This document shows positions 20,363-25,644 of a stretch of DNA of 37,380 nucleotides, one piece after another. Made by a program: the position numbers and the translations under genes. Source of the DNA: a virus; the IMG/VR virus record IMGVR_UViG_3300045988_022742, positions 1-37,380 of that record. The stretch is one strand, 5' to 3'. The notes under the pieces were generated by a model. It was given only the letters and a program-made list of their open reading frames with translations, made no database searches and was not told where the DNA came from. The first letter of the stretch is position 1, and the number at the start of each line of letters is the position of its first letter.

Positions 20363-21700
20363 TTACCTCCTTAAATCTATATATCCACTATGGGTTATAA
20401 ATGTATAGCAGAACGAATCCCAATCATCATTGATATTGTTTACGTTCTCATCTTTTGGGATATCTTTCTTTTCATCCCATACTAATTCGCTCAATGCGTT
20501 TATTAAGTTCTTACAATGTTCTTCTATCTTTAACCTACCTGTAACAAGTAAGCTATCAACCGTTATAGGGCGGTCTGTAAGCTCATTCTTCTTTACCGGT
20601 GCAATTATACTTCCGTCTAGCCCTTCTGCATAAAAATAAGCTCTAAGCGTGTTTATCAACGTATTAGAAGCACTGTCCGGAAATATCCATTCTACATATC
20701 CATAACATTCAACACAACGCTTATAGAATCTTACAAACGCTTTACAGAACTTTGTTGCGTCTATTGAGTTTGACTTTACCATATCTCCCTCATCAAGCGC
20801 CCACATATAATCCCAATCATTTGTAAACCCTGTTAAGTGCCATGAATACTTTGAACCATTGTCTCCAAAGTCAACGCCTATGATTAAATGACTGAACCTT
20901 TTTCCTTCTTCCTTCATCTTTTCTTTTAGACTCTGATATTTGAATAGGTAAGGTTTGCAGTCATTTGCAAAATAAGGAAAGACTAGACCTTCGGCAACCA
21001 TTCTTTCCCCTAAAATATCTCGCTTGTACCATACTGAATTCTTGTCATATTTGTTTTGGATTTCTTCGATTCTTTCTTGGCTCATTGTAGCATTGTCAAA
21101 GATGTTGAAGTGCTCATATCTGTACCAATCTAATCCCATGAATTTATCTATGTAATTCTTATAAATGTCTGCATTTGGGTTTGATGGGTTTAAATCCCAT
21201 AATGTAAATGGATGTACGCTTGCAATCTGTCTTGCCATTGCTACCTTAATAAAACTTGTTCTAGAATCATCACAATCGTAATGCTCATTTATTTCGGTCG
21301 CTATCCATCCACCATATGAGTTACCTAATATACTCTTATATGAATCGGACTTTCCACCACCTGTAAATATCACTATCTTTTCACCTGTCTTTGTTTGGAC
21401 AAATAATGCTTCGTTTGATTTGTATTTACCCCAACGACAACGCCCACGAAAGATATGCTCTAAGCCGAAACCATTGTAATCACCTATATTTAGTTTCGCA
21501 TTCGGTAAGCTTGACCCACTAGCTAAATGTATTTTATCTTCACATGTTTCTAAATACATTGAAAAGATTATGCAGTGGTCAATCGTTTTACCACTTCGTA
21601 CCGCTCCTTCTGCTACACTTTGTTTGTAATTTAGGGCGGTCTTAATATAGTTCTTATGCTTATCTGAAAATTTCCCCCAAGGAATCGTTCTAGTCATCAT
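20363..21700 (-). CDS. terL: Terminase large subunit (PBSX family)
   Basis: Walker-A-like AVRSGKT, size, and position before the portal gene. Confidence 0.85.
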   Translation of the reverse strand: MMTRTIPWGKFSDKHKNYIKTALNYKQSVAEGAVRSGKTIDHCIIFSMYLETCEDKIHLASGSSLPNAKLNIGDYNGFGLEHIFRGRCRWGKYKSNEALFVQTKTGEKIVIFTGGGKSDSYKSILGNSYGGWIATEINEHYDCDDSRTSFIKVAMARQIASVHPFTLWDLNPSNPNADIYKNYIDKFMGLDWYRYEHFNIFDNATMSQERIEEIQNKYDKNSVWYKRDILGERMVAEGLVFPYFANDCKPYLFKYQSLKEKMKEEGKRFSHLIIGVDFGDNGSKYSWHLTGFTNDWDYMWALDEGDMVKSNSIDATKFCKAFVRFYKRCVECYGYVEWIFPDSASNTLINTLRAYFYAEGLDGSIIAPVKKNELTDRPITVDSLLVTGRLKIEEHCKNLINALSELVWDEKKDIPKDENVNNINDDWDSFCYTFITHSGYIDLRR

Positions 21701-22062
21701 TTTAATAAATCTGCCAAAGGTGTTAAGTCCTCAATCTCATGTGTCATTGTTTGTTCAACCTTTTCGGACTGCCCAAGCATTTGTTTACCTAACCAAATAA
21801 GCATGGTCGTATTCCCTTTTGACGCTTTGTCAAATTGCATACGTCTTAAACTTCTTTTTGAGTGACTTATACCTTTTTTATATGTCTGACAAAACTTTCC
21901 ATTTCTTAATAATGTTCTTACCGAACATCCTAGAAAATCTGCAATTTCTTCTTGAGTACATCCAATAGAAGCAAGCTTTTCAACTGCTTCATAATCAATC
22001 TTTACTCTTGGACGTCCTCCTGCGTGTTTCTCTGCTATTTTAATACCCCCTATAACAATCAT
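21697..22062 (-). CDS. terS: Terminase small subunit (HTH). The start is either the ATG at 22062 (no SD) or the ATA at 22038 (7 nt after GGGGG).
   Basis: GGRPRVKIDYEAVEKLASIGCTQEEIADFLGCSVRT is a typical TerS HTH. ATGA overlap with terL. Confidence 0.75.
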   Translation of the reverse strand: MIVIGGIKIAEKHAGGRPRVKIDYEAVEKLASIGCTQEEIADFLGCSVRTLLRNGKFCQTYKKGISHSKRSLRRMQFDKASKGNTTMLIWLGKQMLGQSEKVEQTMTHEIEDLTPLADLLK

Positions 22063-22181
22063 ATTAATTCAACTGCTTTTTAAGCCTTTGTAATCTTTTT
22101 CTTAAATCTCTTTTTCTATATTCTGATGTCGTGTTTTCTAATTCTTCTTCAACGCTTTTCATTTGGCGTAAATGTTCTTCT

Positions 22182-23489
22182 CTAGACGTGTCTTGCTTCT
22201 TCTGTTTCAAGTTCTGTAATCTCCTCTGTTCTTTTTAAGAATGTTACTGAATTATCATATTCGTAAATGATGTCATTATTTTCATCAAATCCTACAGGCT
22301 TTAGAACCTTTTCAAAAATCTTGTAAGGTGATTGTCCTGCTTTTGGTGAATTCCATAAATAATGGAGATAATCTTTCATTGTCATTCCTTTGAATTTTGC
22401 TCTATTCTCTGATGAGTTAGTGTTGAACCCAATAGCTTTATTAAATTGAAAATCTAAGAAATACATATCCTTTTCAATATCTTTCCAATGTACTCTTCCA
22501 TGTTTCTTTGCAATTTGTAAAGCTCCACTAAAATTTCCTCTTGAGTAATCCCAATTCTTGTCTAATGCGCAACAACAACAGTTATTTGAGCATTCTTTAA
22601 AATGTGCGTCTGATACATAGAATCGCATTCCTAATTCATCACATAGATTTTTCATCTTTTGAATGTATTTAGCCTTTACTTTTCTATTCAGTCTTAAATA
22701 TCCACTTCCATTTGAATGTTTTCTATAAAAATCTACAATATCAAATCCTGCACATTCACTAATCACATCATAATGCTCCTTAGCTTGTTTAATAGAGCGC
22801 ATTTCTAAGCAAAAGAACTCCGTAGTAACTGCCGTTGCTCCTGCCTTTTTGGCTTCTCTAATTAAATCTAGATAGGTTTTATCTGATACCCCTACAATAA
22901 ACGGACGCAATCTTAAAGTTGCACCACCTTTTGATAGTTCAGTATATTTTTTCATTGCTTCAAGTCTTTTTCTTGGACTTGGCACACCTACTTCGATTTT
23001 TCTTGCGTCATCTTCATCTAGTGTGATGATACTAAACTTAACATTCCAATTATCTGCACCTTTGAATAATTCTTGATATTTAGGGTCGTTAAATACCCAT
23101 GCCGATTTCGTACTAAAACAGATAGGATAGTTAATAGATTTCAAATACTTAAGCATTTCATAGGTTTTGCCATATTTCTTTTCGTATCCGTCGAATTGGT
23201 CTGATAAACCACCATATTGAATAGGGCGTCTGTCTTTAATGTATTTATAGAATTGTGATTTTGTATCTTCTCCACTGAAAATCTTTTTGCATTTCTCAAC
23301 ATTGATACATTTCACATCTTTATTAAGATATGCTTCTTTACTTGCACCAATACCTCTTTGATATTGGCTAAAACAATAAACACATCCAAATGAACAGTTG
23401 GAATATGTATCAAATGTCACCGGTAATGAGCAATCTGCAATTTCTCCTGTCCATCTTGGTGATTGATATGTCTCACTAATTTTATTCAC
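22182..23489 (-). CDS. Radical SAM protein (SplB/COG1533-like)
   Basis: CX3CX2C motif CSFGCVYC near the N-terminus and an extra CCCC cluster. GTG start 6 nt after GGAGGA. Confidence 0.7.
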   Translation of the reverse strand: MNKISETYQSPRWTGEIADCSLPVTFDTYSNCSFGCVYCFSQYQRGIGASKEAYLNKDVKCINVEKCKKIFSGEDTKSQFYKYIKDRRPIQYGGLSDQFDGYEKKYGKTYEMLKYLKSINYPICFSTKSAWVFNDPKYQELFKGADNWNVKFSIITLDEDDARKIEVGVPSPRKRLEAMKKYTELSKGGATLRLRPFIVGVSDKTYLDLIREAKKAGATAVTTEFFCLEMRSIKQAKEHYDVISECAGFDIVDFYRKHSNGSGYLRLNRKVKAKYIQKMKNLCDELGMRFYVSDAHFKECSNNCCCCALDKNWDYSRGNFSGALQIAKKHGRVHWKDIEKDMYFLDFQFNKAIGFNTNSSENRAKFKGMTMKDYLHYLWNSPKAGQSPYKIFEKVLKPVGFDENNDIIYEYDNSVTFLKRTEEITELETEEARHV

Positions 23490-23490
23490 C

Positions 23491-24252
23491 TTATATCCTC
23501 CATTTCCTTTTCAACAATACTGTTCTATCTTTTTTTGTTACCATATCCGGATATTTCTTTACTAGGCGTCTAAGCCATAGTTCTTGTTCTCCTCTTTGGT
23601 ATCTGTCATACATTCCGCCTTTTTCCTTTCCCATGTAAGATTTATTTGGCACAATGTTATTTATTCTAGCTATGATATATCCTTGTCTAATCATTCTTAG
23701 ATTCAATTCATAATCCTCTAGCATATCCCATTTCTCATCAAATTTGATTTCTTCACTTTTAATAACAAAACACAATCCACCTTGTACGAGTGTATTGAAT
23801 GAATATGTTTCACCTTTCCTAACATAGCTAGCTATGTTCATATTATTGGTTGTGGGTAGACATCCCATGAAGTGAATATTGTTCTTTTGCATAAATGAGA
23901 ATACATCATTAAATGTCTTATCCAACTCAGTGATTTTTTTCTGCGCTCCGCATTTCTTTCCTTGCTTTTCTTCCCATTTCCTAAAATCTCTGATGTCATC
24001 ATCTAGTAAGATGATTTTTGCCCCATTTTCAAAATAATTTAGAATGTTATTTCTATTCGAAGCTACGTTATTTCCACGCCTAGTAATGATTTGAGCTTGA
24101 CTCCCTAATGCTTCAACATAAGTTTTGAAATCATTTGAATCATTTAAGCTAATAACAATTCTTTCATCTTCAATCCCACATTCTTTTAATGCGTGATACG
24201 TTTTACATTTTGGTCTATGGTAACTAGCTATTGCATAATAAATATCATTCAT
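23491..24252 (-). CDS. GT-A-fold glycosyltransferase-like protein
   Basis: N-terminal IASYHRP and a beta-strand plus DXD motif IILLDDDI. Translationally coupled to its neighbours. Confidence 0.45.
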   Translation of the reverse strand: MNDIYYAIASYHRPKCKTYHALKECGIEDERIVISLNDSNDFKTYVEALGSQAQIITRRGNNVASNRNNILNYFENGAKIILLDDDIRDFRKWEEKQGKKCGAQKKITELDKTFNDVFSFMQKNNIHFMGCLPTTNNMNIASYVRKGETYSFNTLVQGGLCFVIKSEEIKFDEKWDMLEDYELNLRMIRQGYIIARINNIVPNKSYMGKEKGGMYDRYQRGEQELWLRRLVKKYPDMVTKKDRTVLLKRKWRI

Positions 24253-24826
24253 GCATTAATTCCTCGACGTCGTAGCACACTTTTAATTCAGTTACCTGCA
24301 ATAGTTTCTCTAAGAATAGTTGTTCTTCCTCTGTTTCATATGTAATGATTACACGTTGCTTTTTTAGTATATCTTCTGAATGTTCGCTAAATGCGTCCAT
24401 AAGCTCATTATCATATCCTTCTGCGTCCATGTCCTCCGTTAATGCACTAATTTCAAAATCGCCAAATCCGAAATCTCTCATATCGATTCCGTCAATTTCT
24501 TCTAGCTCTTCCATTTCTGTTTTTAATGCGTCTAAATCCCAAGACGCTTTTTCTGCCGTTTTATTATCTGCAATTCTAAACGCCTTTACTTGCTCATCTG
24601 TTAAATCATCTGCAACCACGCAAGGAACAGTTTCTAAGCCTAATTCTTGACTAGCTTTATATCGTGTATGACCTGCAACAATCACTCCATTTTTATCAAT
24701 AACAATAGGGACTTTGAAACCGAATTCCTCAATAGAATTTTTAACAAATTTCACTGCTCCATCATTGATTCTAGGGTTATTCTCATAAGGTTTTAGCTCA
24801 TTTAATCTTTTTTCAACAATTTTCAT
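24245..24826 (-). CDS. ParB-like N-terminal (ParB/Srx) domain protein
   Basis: LKPYENNPRIND...VIVAGHTRYKASQELGLETVPCVV is a typical ParBc motif. Acidic C-terminus. Confidence 0.7.
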   Translation of the reverse strand: MKIVEKRLNELKPYENNPRINDGAVKFVKNSIEEFGFKVPIVIDKNGVIVAGHTRYKASQELGLETVPCVVADDLTDEQVKAFRIADNKTAEKASWDLDALKTEMEELEEIDGIDMRDFGFGDFEISALTEDMDAEGYDNELMDAFSEHSEDILKKQRVIITYETEEEQLFLEKLLQVTELKVCYDVEELMHE

Positions 24827-24846: not shown

Positions 24847-25092
24847 TTATAGAGCGTCATTTACATTTAGACAAGTATTTGTATTCTTGATGTATTCATC
24901 AACGTATAATTCCTTTTTATCACCGTTATACGTTACCTCATAATAGTTATCTGTGCTTTGAGCACTAATTAATGCTTTATTGTTTTGAAGCACTTTAACC
25001 ATCCATACAACGAACATTTCACTGATTGCAATATTTGGGTTTACTTGAAATACTGCTTTCATTGCTAATTCTTGAAATTCTTTTGAACCCAT
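24847..25092 (-). CDS. Hypothetical 81-aa protein
   Basis: ORF track. SD is TAAGGAGGAGAAT. Confidence 0.65.
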   Translation of the reverse strand: MGSKEFQELAMKAVFQVNPNIAISEMFVVWMVKVLQNNKALISAQSTDNYYEVTYNGDKKELYVDEYIKNTNTCLNVNDAL

Positions 25093-25215: not shown

Positions 25216-25291
25216 TGGTTGCAGGAGAAGGAATTGCACCGTTCGACCTCTAGCTAATAAGACTAGTGAGCTACTACTGCTCTATCCTGCT
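25216..25291 (-). tRNA. tRNA-like gene, anticodon UAU (decodes AUA), with initiator-tRNA-like acceptor and D-arm features. The T-stem is non-canonical.
   Basis: Hand-folded cloverleaf: AGCAGGA-UA-GAGC-AGUAGUA-GCUC-A-CUAGU-CUUAUUA-GCUAG-AGGUC-GAA(C)GG-UGCAAUU-CCUUC-UCCUGCA-A-CCA. The CCA end is encoded. Deviations: A1xA72 mismatch, no GG in the D-loop, U37, one bulged C in the T-stem. Confidence 0.55.
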
Positions 25292-25308: not shown

Positions 25309-25331
25309 AAAAAATGCTCACATTGTGAGCA
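25309..25331 (-). terminator. Rho-independent terminator overlapping the ArpU-like gene stop codon
   Basis: - strand reads TGCTCAC-AAT-GTGAGCA followed by TTTTTT. Confidence 0.6.
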
Positions 25332-25644
25332 CTTTCTTTAAGTTCTTATTTATTTTTCTTGGAATCTCTTCTCTTGCATAACCTACAATATTAGATGTCT
25401 TTTCTGCGCTGAATCCCTTTATATATCTATACTCAATCATTGTTCGAGTTGTATCATCAAGTTGGCTTAATTTATCTTTTACATAGTTCATTCTTCTTGC
25501 ATAATCCGCATGAGCTAAGAATAGCTCGGCTTTTAAAGGATAAATTGCTTCATCCCTTTGTAGCTCTGCTATCTTTTGCTCATAATATGTGTATGATTGG
25601 CATTCACACAAGAAGTGTCTCTTAATATCTTCATACGTGCTCAT
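25318..25644 (-). CDS. ArpU/RinA-like late transcriptional regulator (sigma region-4-like HTH)
   Basis: The C-terminal MIEYRYIKGFSAEKTSNIVGYAREEIPRKINKNLKKV is HTH-like. It sits at the early/late boundary. Confidence 0.55.
   Translation of the reverse strand: MSTYEDIKRHFLCECQSYTYYEQKIAELQRDEAIYPLKAELFLAHADYARRMNYVKDKLSQLDDTTRTMIEYRYIKGFSAEKTSNIVGYAREEIPRKINKNLKKVLTM

Follow-up and report, generated by a model that had tools for sequence, protein, structure and literature searches.

To our knowledge, 5-hydroxymethylpyrimidines reach DNA by two routes: O2-dependent oxidation by TET/JBP/5mYOX enzymes, or pre-replicative synthesis by nucleotide hydroxymethylases coupled to replacement of the canonical dNTP pool. 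Post-replicative pathways built on the phage 5mYOX (TET/JBP-like) enzymes have been described (O'Toole et al., PNAS 2026, PMC13229309; Burke et al., PNAS 2021, PMC8256090; bioRxiv 10.1101/2023.12.21.572611). Genes neighbouring 5mYOX encode glycosyltransferases (GTs), ParB, terminase, amino-acid transferases, O-methyltransferases, kinases, APH, HAD and GNAT, and in a subclass of the phage thymine dioxygenases a ParB-like protein that has no DNA-binding domain is an experimentally required activator (PMC13229309). GTs of the TAGT (TET-associated glycosyltransferase) family glycosylate 5hmC in DNA and resemble the trypanosome JGT, which acts on 5hmU; the motif set of phage DNA glycosyltransferases is R...DDD...EDY/F (bioRxiv 10.1101/2023.12.21.572611).

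In kinetoplastid base J synthesis (JBP1/2 and JGT), T is converted to 5hmU, which then undergoes GT-A glycosylation. The only characterised DNA-modifying radical-SAM (rSAM) enzyme that we know of is gp53 of Pseudomonas phage M6. The chemistry of another rSAM enzyme, spore photoproduct lyase (SPL; SplB, TIGR04070), passes through a thymine allylic radical. M6 gp53 is an SPL-like isomerase of N-alpha-glycinylthymidine in DNA (Lee et al., NAR 2021/2022, PMC8989533); its proposed mechanism runs via a thymine C5-methylene radical, and its step follows those of a dUMP hydroxymethylase, a kinase (5-HMUDK) and an amino-acid:DNA transferase (AADT), beside a PLP decarboxylase.

The DNA analysed here, ‘the window’ in what follows, is 37,380 nt of virus DNA (IMGVR_UViG_3300045988_022742, positions 1-37,380) from a gut phage. 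Three closely spaced minus-strand genes lie in it directly upstream of terS and terL. The features of this region are as follows.

20363-21700, minus strand: terL, terminase large subunit (phrog_10250)
21697-22062, minus strand: terS, terminase small subunit (phrog_309, E 1.4e-11)
22182-23489, minus strand: radical-SAM enzyme, 435 aa, GTG start (ORF listing)
22569-22580, minus strand: CCCC in the radical-SAM enzyme (translation)
23373-23396, minus strand: CSFGCVYC, the CX3CX2C motif for the rSAM [4Fe-4S] cluster (translation)
23491-24252, minus strand: GT-A glycosyltransferase, TAGT, 253 aa (ORF listing and Pfam)
23995-24003, minus strand: DDD, metal/nucleotide-sugar binding motif of the GT (translation; invariant in 16 homologues)
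24245-24826, minus strand: ParB-like protein, 193 aa, ParB_N (ORF listing and Pfam)
24847-25092, minus strand: DUF6275 gene (PF19791, E 4.8e-25), between the tRNA and ParB
25219-25291, minus strand: tRNA, anticodon UAU (Rfam tRNA model, 48 bits)

A first-pass annotation, made from the sequence alone, had read the three genes as translationally coupled, and the ORF coordinates agree, with an 8-nt overlap at 24245-24252 and a 1-nt gap at 23490. The tRNA that it noticed nearby is real according to the Rfam model, though ARAGORN does not call it in the window. Its placement of the trio between this tRNA and terS is right as to both flanks, but the DUF6275 gene also intervenes, directly upstream of the ParB gene with a gap of 20 nt; this gene is probably co-transcribed with the ParB gene and holds the equal position in one relative (locus L136).

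The middle gene of the trio matches PF20691 (TAGT) over residues 7-213 of 253 at 47.1 bits, against a gathering cut-off of 27.5, and falls in phrog_842. Across 16 homologues R13, D84-D85-D86 and (E/D)179-D180-Y181 do not vary, and these R...DDD...EDY motifs are those of trypanosome DNA glycosyltransferases and of phage enzymes for which this activity has been shown by experiment. The GT-A hallmarks picked out earlier, SYHRP and IILLDDDI, are both present in the translation, and an AF2 model (pLDDT 88) finds GT-A structures by Foldseek at probability 1.0, among them WrtF, RmlT, GnT-I and, at rank 25, the teichoic-acid glycosyltransferase TarP. A search of PDB sequences with the GT gave nothing useful, and DNA search and tblastn found no match to it in 50,697 phage records. 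A search of 5.8 billion proteins with the GT gave only 18 matches, every one in a ParB-GT-rSAM context. Family membership and motifs together predict that the GT glycosylates the hydroxymethyl group of an oxidised pyrimidine in DNA. The key difference from described TAGT systems lies in the supplier of that group: no TET/JBP or ThyA-type gene stands beside this GT, PF12851, PF00303 and PF02511 all being absent from the ORFs of the window that were scanned.

The ParB-like protein matches PF02195 over residues 9-88 (E 5.7e-9) and phrog_620 (E 1e-57), in keeping with the ParB/Srx-type N-terminal domain first assigned to it. Across 103 homologues it is built from a nucleotide-binding-type N-domain, which carries the motifs NPR and GxxR, followed by an acidic linker and a short C-terminus of 33 aa that is conserved; the Pfam scan found in it neither an HTH DNA-binding domain nor, as already supposed, a fused methylase. 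At the DNA level this N-domain is the only part of the trio with a match among the 50,697 phage records, at about 72% identity to ParB-methylase genes of Streptococcus phages. Compared by domain architecture, the protein has the form reported for the partners of ParB-dependent thymine dioxygenases, and by this analogy we propose that it may assist the rSAM enzyme as a partner or activator, loading it onto duplex DNA or keeping it there.

In the rSAM enzyme, an rSAM core with a partial TIM barrel is followed by a family-specific C-terminal domain (W379 invariant, Y409 conserved). Cysteines C32, C36 and C39 of the CX3CX2C motif are 100% conserved in 39 diverse homologues; outside that motif the conserved cysteines are C20 (95%), C227 (79%), and C306 and C307 (90%). 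Thus the CSFGCVYC and CCCC motifs noted at first are both in the translation, but of the CCCC run only C306/C307 are conserved in the family. Inteins in the homologues have insertion hot spots at CX3CX2C (breakpoints at about residues 36-42) and at CC306/307, which argues that both sites are critical. C20, C227, C306 and C307 are candidates, from their conservation, for an auxiliary Fe-S cluster or for catalytic or radical-relay cysteines.

The wider affiliation of this enzyme is remote. PF04055 scores 19.9 bits on the window protein, under the cut-off of 29.5, and relatives score above it. Among NCBIfam models it matches PA0069 (E 1.6e-19) and Rv2578c (E 1e-12), both COG1533-like, with scores so far under the family cut-offs (70 versus 360 bits) that the relation must be distant. 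The AF2 model (pLDDT 88.9) finds rSAM structures by Foldseek at probability 1.0. The Foldseek check that the first-pass annotation had recommended thus returned GT-A folds for the GT but, for the rSAM enzyme, generic rSAM matches only (PDB and BFVD). SPL gives no match to the window protein at E <= 0.1 (TIGR04070), does not appear among the 50 best Foldseek matches, and is not found at E <= 10 when a family profile of 39 rSAM sequences is run against all PDB sequences; PDB sequence searches with the protein or with this profile gave nothing useful. The original assignment to an ‘SplB/COG1533 type’ therefore holds at clade level, SPL itself being matched neither in sequence nor in fold, and Foldseek gave no ground for a narrower label. 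With M6 gp53, hhalign of the family gives 97.3% probability and E 2e-11 over 240 columns at 18% identity; tblastn of the 50,697 phage records gave three weak matches and did not recover gp53. Since SPL was not recovered, the assignment of the rSAM enzyme to DNA rests on this remote gp53/COG1533 link and on context.

The enzyme is the founder of a large uncharacterised family, whose more than 2,200 members nearly all derive from metagenomes of the gut or rumen. Of the 53 genome-collection matches, all except a few belong to MAGs of anaerobes from gut, rumen or termite gut, MAG host labels on phage contigs being unreliable. No isolated phage with the complete module was found among the 50,697 phage records (DNA search and tblastn).

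The loci of relatives were gathered with a nine-sequence rSAM alignment, giving a census of 58 dereplicated loci; such a gene-neighbourhood survey had been suggested at the outset, and it strengthens the grouping. In 51 of the 58, the interval from 6 kb upstream of the rSAM gene to 4 kb downstream of it contains a ParB homologue. The terminase follows closely (terS no more than 4 kb downstream in 40/58, terL in 48/58), and in most loci the rSAM gene is the last before it. Partners include a TAGT (21/58), a P-loop kinase (28/58) and an amino-acid:DNA transferase (PF18724, 24/58), cassettes whose substrate is 5-hydroxymethylpyrimidine DNA, at least one of the three being present in 51/58. From locus to locus it is the rSAM gene that stays and the cassettes between it and ParB that change, and some loci have it with ParB alone. 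The ParB-GT-rSAM order is kept even where GT identity is 35%. O-methyltransferases accompany or join the rSAM enzyme in three cases (L006, L048 and P0127, the last a fusion with an FkbM O-methyltransferase). All recurrent partners (GT, kinase, O-methyltransferases) act on a hydroxyl. Phage-encoded SAM synthetase occurs in 14/58 loci, which fits stoichiometric SAM consumption by the rSAM enzyme.

Nine proteins fuse rSAM to TAGT, in both orders (P0121, P0124, P0130, P0131, P0136, P0139, P0140, P0154 and P0306), and one of them, P0136, also carries a Ploopntkinase3 (DNA-base kinase) domain. We found no description in the literature of the association of rSAM with TAGT and ParB; Iyer et al. 2013, reportedly the origin of the TAGT name, may mention it. 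One homologue carries the JGI annotation ‘DNA repair photolyase’. A smaller rSAM paralogue of 277 aa (~280 aa), with a weak TIGR04070 match, was considered as a general initiating enzyme and rejected, as no more than about 10 of 78 loci have it and the window lacks it.

The initial proposal of a DNA (hyper)modification module is backed by TAGT membership, by the rSAM-TAGT fusions, by the co-occurrence with ParB and modification cassettes, and by the ParB precedent (PMC13229309). We regard it as highly probable that the trio is such a module, with the rSAM enzyme, the ParB-like protein and the GT working together.

Other sources of a hydroxymethyl base were sought in the window and in relatives. 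In the window (Pfam scan of ORFs >= 60 aa, overlapping ORFs pruned, E <= 0.001), TET_JBP, ThyA/ThyX, DNA methylases and kinases are absent from all ORFs scanned, so the lack of a hydroxymethylase, TET/JBP or methyltransferase remarked on earlier holds, as does its corollary that the chemistry must be unusual. Among relatives, ThyA probes had no match in 136 loci, C5-methylases occur in about 5 of 78 loci, and ThyX occurs in two relatives. TET_JBP was found neither in seven related contigs with precomputed Pfam annotation nor in ten intra-module proteins without assigned function, a result that for the relatives covers +/-8-10 kb, partly via a top-25 family list; an Fe(II)/2OG 5-methylpyrimidine dioxygenase, as defined by PF12851, is likewise absent from the window and those seven contigs. 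A pre-replicative route was rejected on the lack of a ThyA/ThyX-like gene in the window and of a ThyA-type gene in related loci. A dUTPase gene in the window is consistent with ordinary DNA that contains T. The lack of a TET, hydroxymethylase or methylase in the window points to the rSAM enzyme as the missing first step.

In the pathway that we propose, the ParB-like protein would help the rSAM enzyme engage duplex phage DNA, as in ParB-dependent thymine dioxygenases. The rSAM enzyme would cleave SAM reductively, and the 5'-deoxyadenosyl radical would take a hydrogen from the C5-methyl of a flipped-out thymine (or, where one of the few relatives has a C5-methylase, of 5mC). One-electron oxidation of the allylic radical, possibly via the C20/C227/C306/C307 site, followed by capture of water, would yield 5-hydroxymethyluracil in DNA, onto whose hydroxyl the TAGT would move a sugar to give a base-J-like glycosyl-5hmU. 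Because the module abuts terS/terL, the modification may be added just before or during packaging, and virion DNA would presumably be shielded from host nucleases. We know of no case on DNA in which an rSAM enzyme hydroxylates a methyl group with oxygen taken from water. That the rSAM enzyme is a T (or 5mC) methyl hydroxylase is at best an even call, and for the whole explanation, a post-replicative pyrimidine hypermodification in which an rSAM enzyme replaces the O2-dependent dioxygenase, we judge the chances to be balanced. Slightly more tentative is the reading of the family as an O2-independent, ParB-assisted counterpart of TET/JBP, and of the window phage as a carrier of base-J-like glycosyl-5hmU.

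The nearest counterpart to this scheme is ParB-dependent 5mYOX, which likewise has a ParB-like partner without a DNA-binding domain, a GT-A glycosyltransferase of TAGT/JGT-like type and an adjoining terminase. Relatives of the rSAM enzyme share further neighbours with 5mYOX (P-loop kinase, amino-acid:DNA transferase, GNAT, O-methyltransferase, HAD/APH). A C5-methylase is rare in both (about 6%), which suggests thymine as the usual substrate. Unlike in 5mYOX systems, no Fe(II)/2-oxoglutarate dioxygenase is found in the window or in the relatives examined, the rSAM enzyme being the invariant component, and the family is almost entirely confined to anaerobic gut and rumen metagenomes, a setting in which O2-dependent dioxygenases would be useless. 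Base J synthesis resembles the predicted order of T to 5hmU and then GT-A glycosylation, with R...DDD...EDY motifs, but here an rSAM oxidase would stand in place of the dioxygenase, in a viral/bacterial system.

With gp53, the window enzyme has remote but significant homology, shared remote NCBIfam families and a proposed thymine C5-methylene radical, whereas its C-terminal domain is different. The hydroxymethylase, kinase, AADT and decarboxylase among which gp53 works have no equivalent in the window, and the present family instead has glycosyltransferases and ParB as its partners and apparently takes the first step. The sole characterised relative, gp53, is a tailoring isomerase rather than an initiator, which counts against a hydroxylase role. 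The CX3CX2C rSAM core is common to SPL and to PA0069/Rv2578c, the latter two also through the remote HMM matches; unlike SPL, the family was not found in a repair context.

The alternative that survives best makes the rSAM enzyme a tailoring enzyme like gp53, one that rearranges, epimerises, dehydrates or cross-links an attached group, on an acceptor base supplied by the host or by a phage protein that has escaped recognition. The closest characterised relative does just this, isomerising N-alpha-glycinyl-T to C-alpha-glycinyl-T after the transferase step (PMC8989533), and it matches the same remote NCBIfam families; moreover, the rSAM gene is the module's last, and gene order often mirrors pathway order. 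We nevertheless hold it to be unlikely: the family accompanies unrelated cassettes (sugar transfer, phosphorylation with amino-acid transfer, O-methylation) or ParB alone, so that a tailoring enzyme would need a substrate common to all of them, which is the base itself, and no candidate for an initiating enzyme exists in the 37-kb window or recurs in related loci.

A further alternative, which we consider quite unlikely, keeps the rSAM enzyme as initiator but by other chemistry, either MqnE/HpnH-type adenosylation or an RlmN/Cfr-like SAM-derived methylene, the partners then acting on ribose hydroxyls or on a new hydroxymethyl of C or U instead of an oxidised thymine. RlmN/Cfr have two catalytic cysteines, and the extra conserved C20, C227, C306 and C307 recall them; the SAM synthetase genes fit heavy SAM use, and partners that need just ‘a hydroxyl’ do not alone specify 5hmU. 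Foldseek, however, favours RlmN/Cfr no more than other rSAM enzymes, TAGT/JGT-type enzymes act on 5hmC and 5hmU, and thymine already has a methyl from which hydrogen abstraction is the simplest route. Furthermore, the pairing of kinase and AADT is known only from 5hmdU-based pathways, where it activates the allylic hydroxymethyl and substitutes it (PMC8989533).

That the three genes are unrelated (a GT for the host surface, such as TarP-like glycosylation of wall teichoic acid for superinfection exclusion, an rSAM enzyme of SPL-like repair or unrelated metabolism, and a ParB for partition or nuclease functions) could appeal to the TarP match, the photolyase label and the many roles of ParB_N domains, but is very improbable given nine independent fusions of GT and rSAM, found in either order, a gene order that outlasts divergence of the GT, bona fide DNA-base-modifying cassettes in the GT's slot at other loci, and no match to SPL by sequence or Foldseek.

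If the preferred reading, a thymine-hydroxylating rSAM enzyme assisted by ParB, is true, an rSAM enzyme that does this on DNA already synthesised would represent a chemistry new to DNA modification, and the role of ParB-like proteins as activators would reach a second, unrelated class of DNA base-modifying enzymes. It would offer a possible O2-independent tool for 5mC/T oxidation in epigenomic chemistry, and would draw attention to a class of gut phages with DNA that may be refractory to restriction enzymes, CRISPR nucleases, library preparation and sequencing. For the family itself, more than 2,000 unannotated proteins would gain a function, and in thousands of phages of the gut and rumen the enzyme would open the way to base hypermodifications of glycosyl, aminoacyl and methoxy type. 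It would also explain how phages that infect strict anaerobes (most of the gut virome) come to have hypermodified DNA.

ORF calls on the window place the three genes of the module on the minus strand upstream of terS and terL, with the positions, the 8-nt overlap of the ParB-like and glycosyltransferase (GT) genes and the 1-nt spacing of the GT and radical-SAM (rSAM) genes that the first-pass annotation gave when it proposed a DNA hypermodification module. Its sequence motifs are present, and re-translation confirmed CSFGCVYC, CCCC and DDD at their coordinates.

Features of the module and its surroundings
25318-25644, upstream of the trio, sigma/ArpU-like late regulator
25219-25291, minus strand, tRNA, anticodon UAU (Rfam RF00005, 48 bits, E 6e-9)
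24847-25092, minus strand, DUF6275 gene, upstream of the ParB gene
24245-24826, minus strand, ParB-like protein, 193 aa
23491-24252, minus strand, GT-A-like protein, 253 aa
22182-23489, minus strand, radical-SAM protein, 435 aa, GTG start
21697-22062, minus strand, terS, downstream of the rSAM gene
20363-21700, minus strand, terL, after terS

The tRNA claimed upstream of the trio is thus upheld by the Rfam model. ARAGORN did not report it at this position; the probable reason is an A-A mismatch in the topmost pair of the acceptor stem. Its anticodon loop, CUUAUUA, would read the Ile codon AUA, and a terminator-like hairpin follows at 25135-25117 (minus strand). A gap of 119 nt (22063-22181) separates the stop codon of the rSAM gene from the start of terS. 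A highly charged 48-aa ORF with a TTG start (22064-22210, minus strand) overlaps the 3′ end of the rSAM gene by 29 nt; no gene is called in the equivalent gap of a close relative, locus L136. The stretch may hold a small gene or serve as a spacer with a regulatory or packaging-related role. Elsewhere, structural and lysis genes lie in the left arm, and the early region encodes HTH proteins, the recombination proteins Sak, SSB, RusA and NinB, and a dUTPase of the dimeric type. No integrase was found by Pfam at E ≤ 0.001 in positions 1-37380. Genes 97-99% identical to the rSAM gene lie on IMG/VR contigs of 37.5-40.3 kb, and the window resembles an almost complete siphophage genome.

The GT matches the Pfam family TAGT (‘TET-associated glycosyltransferase’) at 47.1 bits (cut-off 27.5), and AlphaFold models it (pLDDT 88) with a GT-A fold, as the first-pass annotation had expected. 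R13, DDD84-86 and (E/D)DY179-181 are invariant among its homologues; the same R...DDD...EDY signature has been described in DNA glycosyltransferases of the GT-A type from phages and in the base-J glucosyltransferase of trypanosomes.

Relatives of the rSAM protein number 2227 at E ≤ 1e-3, or 2271 by family profile at E ≤ 1e-10, in a collection of 5.8 billion proteins, with 1490 among 50%-identity representatives; one is named ‘DNA repair photolyase’, one ‘hypothetical protein’ and the rest are unnamed. CX3CX2C is invariant in the family, and further cysteines are conserved at C20 (95%), C306 (90%), C307 (90%) and C227 (79%), so that the CCCC cluster, present on translation, is just half conserved (C306, C307). 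The structure model (pLDDT 88.9, pTM 0.89) matches generic radical-SAM folds only in Foldseek (MgmA, lipoyl synthase, PFL-AE and viperin, E ~4e-4), and no PDB sequence matched a 39-sequence family profile. The earlier SplB/COG1533 label stands in part: there are remote matches to the COG1533-like families PA0069 (70 bits, cut-off 360) and Rv2578c (48 bits, cut-off 430), but spore photoproduct lyase (SPL, SplB) is absent from the best 50 fold matches. The core of the 435-aa enzyme also matches ~280-aa proteins of the hmU-containing Bacillus phages CP-51 and Goe2 (Foldseek). Approximately 10 of 78 loci carry a second, ~280-aa paralogue of the same COG1533-like clade, directly upstream of ParB or near terS/terL (L001 6710-7543; also L007, L075, L080, L084, L086, L095, L096, L100 and L104), which weakly matches SPL TIGR04070 (E 2.7e-6); the window has none.

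For the neighbourhood survey, 133 related loci were fetched, their ORFs called and clustered, and the set dereplicated at 90% rSAM identity; cluster identities were borne out by Pfam. Family HMM counts were made on the 58 dereplicated loci that extend 3 kb or more upstream.

Gene families at the 58 related loci
ParB, 51/58
terL directly downstream, 48/58
P-loop kinase, 28/58
Amino-acid:DNA transferase (AADT, PF18724), 24/58
TAGT, 21/58
SAM synthetase, 14/58
GNAT, 13/58
At least one of TAGT, kinase or AADT, 51/58

Four architectures recur: ParB-TAGT-rSAM, as in the window; ParB-kinase-AADT-(GNAT)-rSAM; ParB-(HAD/APH-like)-(cytidylyltransferase)-TAGT-rSAM; and ParB-TAGT-like-(SPASM rSAM)-rSAM. 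The order ParB-GT-rSAM-terS-terL is maintained at GT identities as low as 35%. Rarer variants are ParB-C5 methylase-rSAM, ParB-class I methyltransferase-rSAM and rSAM-FkbM. At locus L050 (4780-8096) the order is ParB, C5 cytosine methylase, small ORF, rSAM and N6/N4 methylase, which mirrors the known pairing of C5-MT with TET, here with rSAM, and hints at 5mC as the substrate there. Upstream of TAGT, some loci (L120 5732-7223; also L075, L084, L097, L110 and L133) carry a HAD-phosphatase/APH-like kinase fusion (355 aa) and a cytidylyltransferase (144 aa), which suggests that these relatives build a CDP-activated donor; the group that TAGT transfers there may therefore not be a simple hexose. 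The SAM synthetase cluster (c9) adjoins the module, as at L022 2259-3281 (MetK, TIGR01034, E 3e-44), and is not found in the window.

In the ParB-like protein, PF02195 covers residues 9-88. An alignment of 103 homologues shows a conserved N-domain (NPR, GxxR), an acidic linker (residues 96-160 contain 22 D/E versus 5 K/R) and a short C-terminal segment that is also conserved, with no HTH. DNA encoding the N-domain (24538-24826) is ~72% identical to Streptococcus pyogenes/dysgalactiae prophage genes annotated ‘DNA modification methylase’, and in other records as ParB-like or ParB N-terminal proteins; nowhere else in the region does the DNA resemble that of isolated phages. The match suggests that the ParB domain may be exchanged as a module among different DNA-modifying partners. 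Streptococcus prophage 315.4 has the same layout of ArpU, ParB, variable genes and terminase. From this identity and layout, the position between ArpU and terminase serves Firmicutes siphophages generally as a ‘DNA modification slot’.

Every recurrent partner requires a hydroxyl on the base, and in characterised systems the kinase and AADT pair is known for 5-hydroxymethyl-dU only (PMC8989533). Among window ORFs of at least 60 aa, after pruning of overlapping ORFs, no TET_JBP, ThyA, ThyX, DNA methylase or kinase was found, in line with the absence of a hydroxymethylase, TET/JBP or methyltransferase partner noted at first pass. ThyA probes found no match on related loci, and C5-methylases occur in ~5 of 78. 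TET_JBP was found neither on seven related contigs with precomputed Pfam domains nor among unassigned genes inside related modules, in checks covering ±8-10 kb, one scan taking the best 25 of 73 families.

A subclass of the phage TET/JBP-like thymine dioxygenases (5mYOX) depends on a ParB-like activator on duplex DNA, with nucleotide-binding and C-terminal domains and without a DNA-binding domain (O'Toole et al., PNAS 2026, PMC13229309). Their gene neighbours include GTs (31%), ParBs (27%) and terminases (19%), then amino-acid transferases, O-methyltransferases, kinases, APH, HAD and GNAT, with C5-methylases at 6% only (PMC13229309). For the pair 5mYOX176/ParB176, the dioxygenase is predicted to lie between the N- and C-domains of its ParB partner. 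The rSAM neighbourhood is this list minus the dioxygenase, and the simplest account, by analogy, is that the rSAM enzyme occupies the slot of the dioxygenase.

The enzyme would engage duplex DNA with the help of ParB, and the 5′-deoxyadenosyl radical would remove an allylic hydrogen from the methyl of thymine, giving the radical already invoked for SPL and for gp53, the radical-SAM enzyme of Pseudomonas phage M6. Oxidation, in which an auxiliary cluster or the conserved cysteines may take part, and addition of water would then yield 5-hydroxymethyluracil (5hmU), to be glycosylated by TAGT. As the candidate substrate, thymine is favoured over 5mC, since no methylase is encoded in the window; for some relatives the ParB-C5 methylase-rSAM variant points to 5mC. 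We give this role, an O2-independent methylpyrimidine hydroxylase, close to an even chance.

The sole informative relative, gp53 (hhalign 97.3% probability, E 2e-11, 240 columns, 18% identity), also matches PA0069 and Rv2578c. It isomerises N-alpha-glycinylthymidine in DNA, by a proposed mechanism via a thymine C5-methylene radical, and is billed as the first radical-SAM enzyme installing a DNA modification (PMC8989533). A gp53-like tailoring role for the window enzyme appears unlikely; the partners' hydroxyl would then still need a source. Initiation by other chemistry, either adenosylation or RlmN-like methylene transfer, would keep the enzyme at the head of the pathway and also appears unlikely.

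Twenty long rSAM representatives were scanned for fusions. With a ninth (P0306) from precomputed domains, nine proteins have TAGT fused N- or C-terminally to rSAM, one also with Ploopntkinase3, and one protein carries an FkbM O-methyltransferase. These fusions contradict a reading of the trio as three unrelated functions, which is very improbable. Inteins interrupt P0126, P0128, P0139, P0142, P0151, P0159, P0208, P0222, P0223, P0235 and P0264, seven rSAM homologues by Pfam intein/LAGLIDADG matches and the others by split alignments. Two hot spots lie at CX3CX2C (residues ~36-42) and the CC306/307 motif (residues ~300-310), and one homologue is interrupted a third time, near residue 185. Inteins typically insert at catalytically critical sites, and the placement at these two motifs is typical of that pattern. 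With TAGT membership, the GT-rSAM fusions and the ParB/TAGT/kinase/AADT neighbourhoods, the hypermodification proposal is supported and sharpened: the trio very probably forms one DNA-modifying pathway.

In a species-representative genome collection, all but a handful of 53 matches are MAGs of gut, rumen, caecum or termite gut. The MAGs are labelled as strict anaerobes; phage contigs are often mis-binned, so habitat alone is reliable. This ecology fits an oxygen-free substitute for the dioxygenase, and stoichiometric use of SAM by the proposed hydroxylase would agree with the presence of SAM synthetase genes at a quarter of the loci. Papers on 5mYOX, phage DNA GTs and 5-hydroxycytosine do not mention a radical-SAM enzyme in the dioxygenase role, nor did a full-text literature search, whose reach did not include Iyer et al. 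2013, return a description of one. Systems that hypermodify pyrimidines after replication by means of ParB and a DNA GT are a type already known; an initiating enzyme of the radical-SAM class would be new for them.
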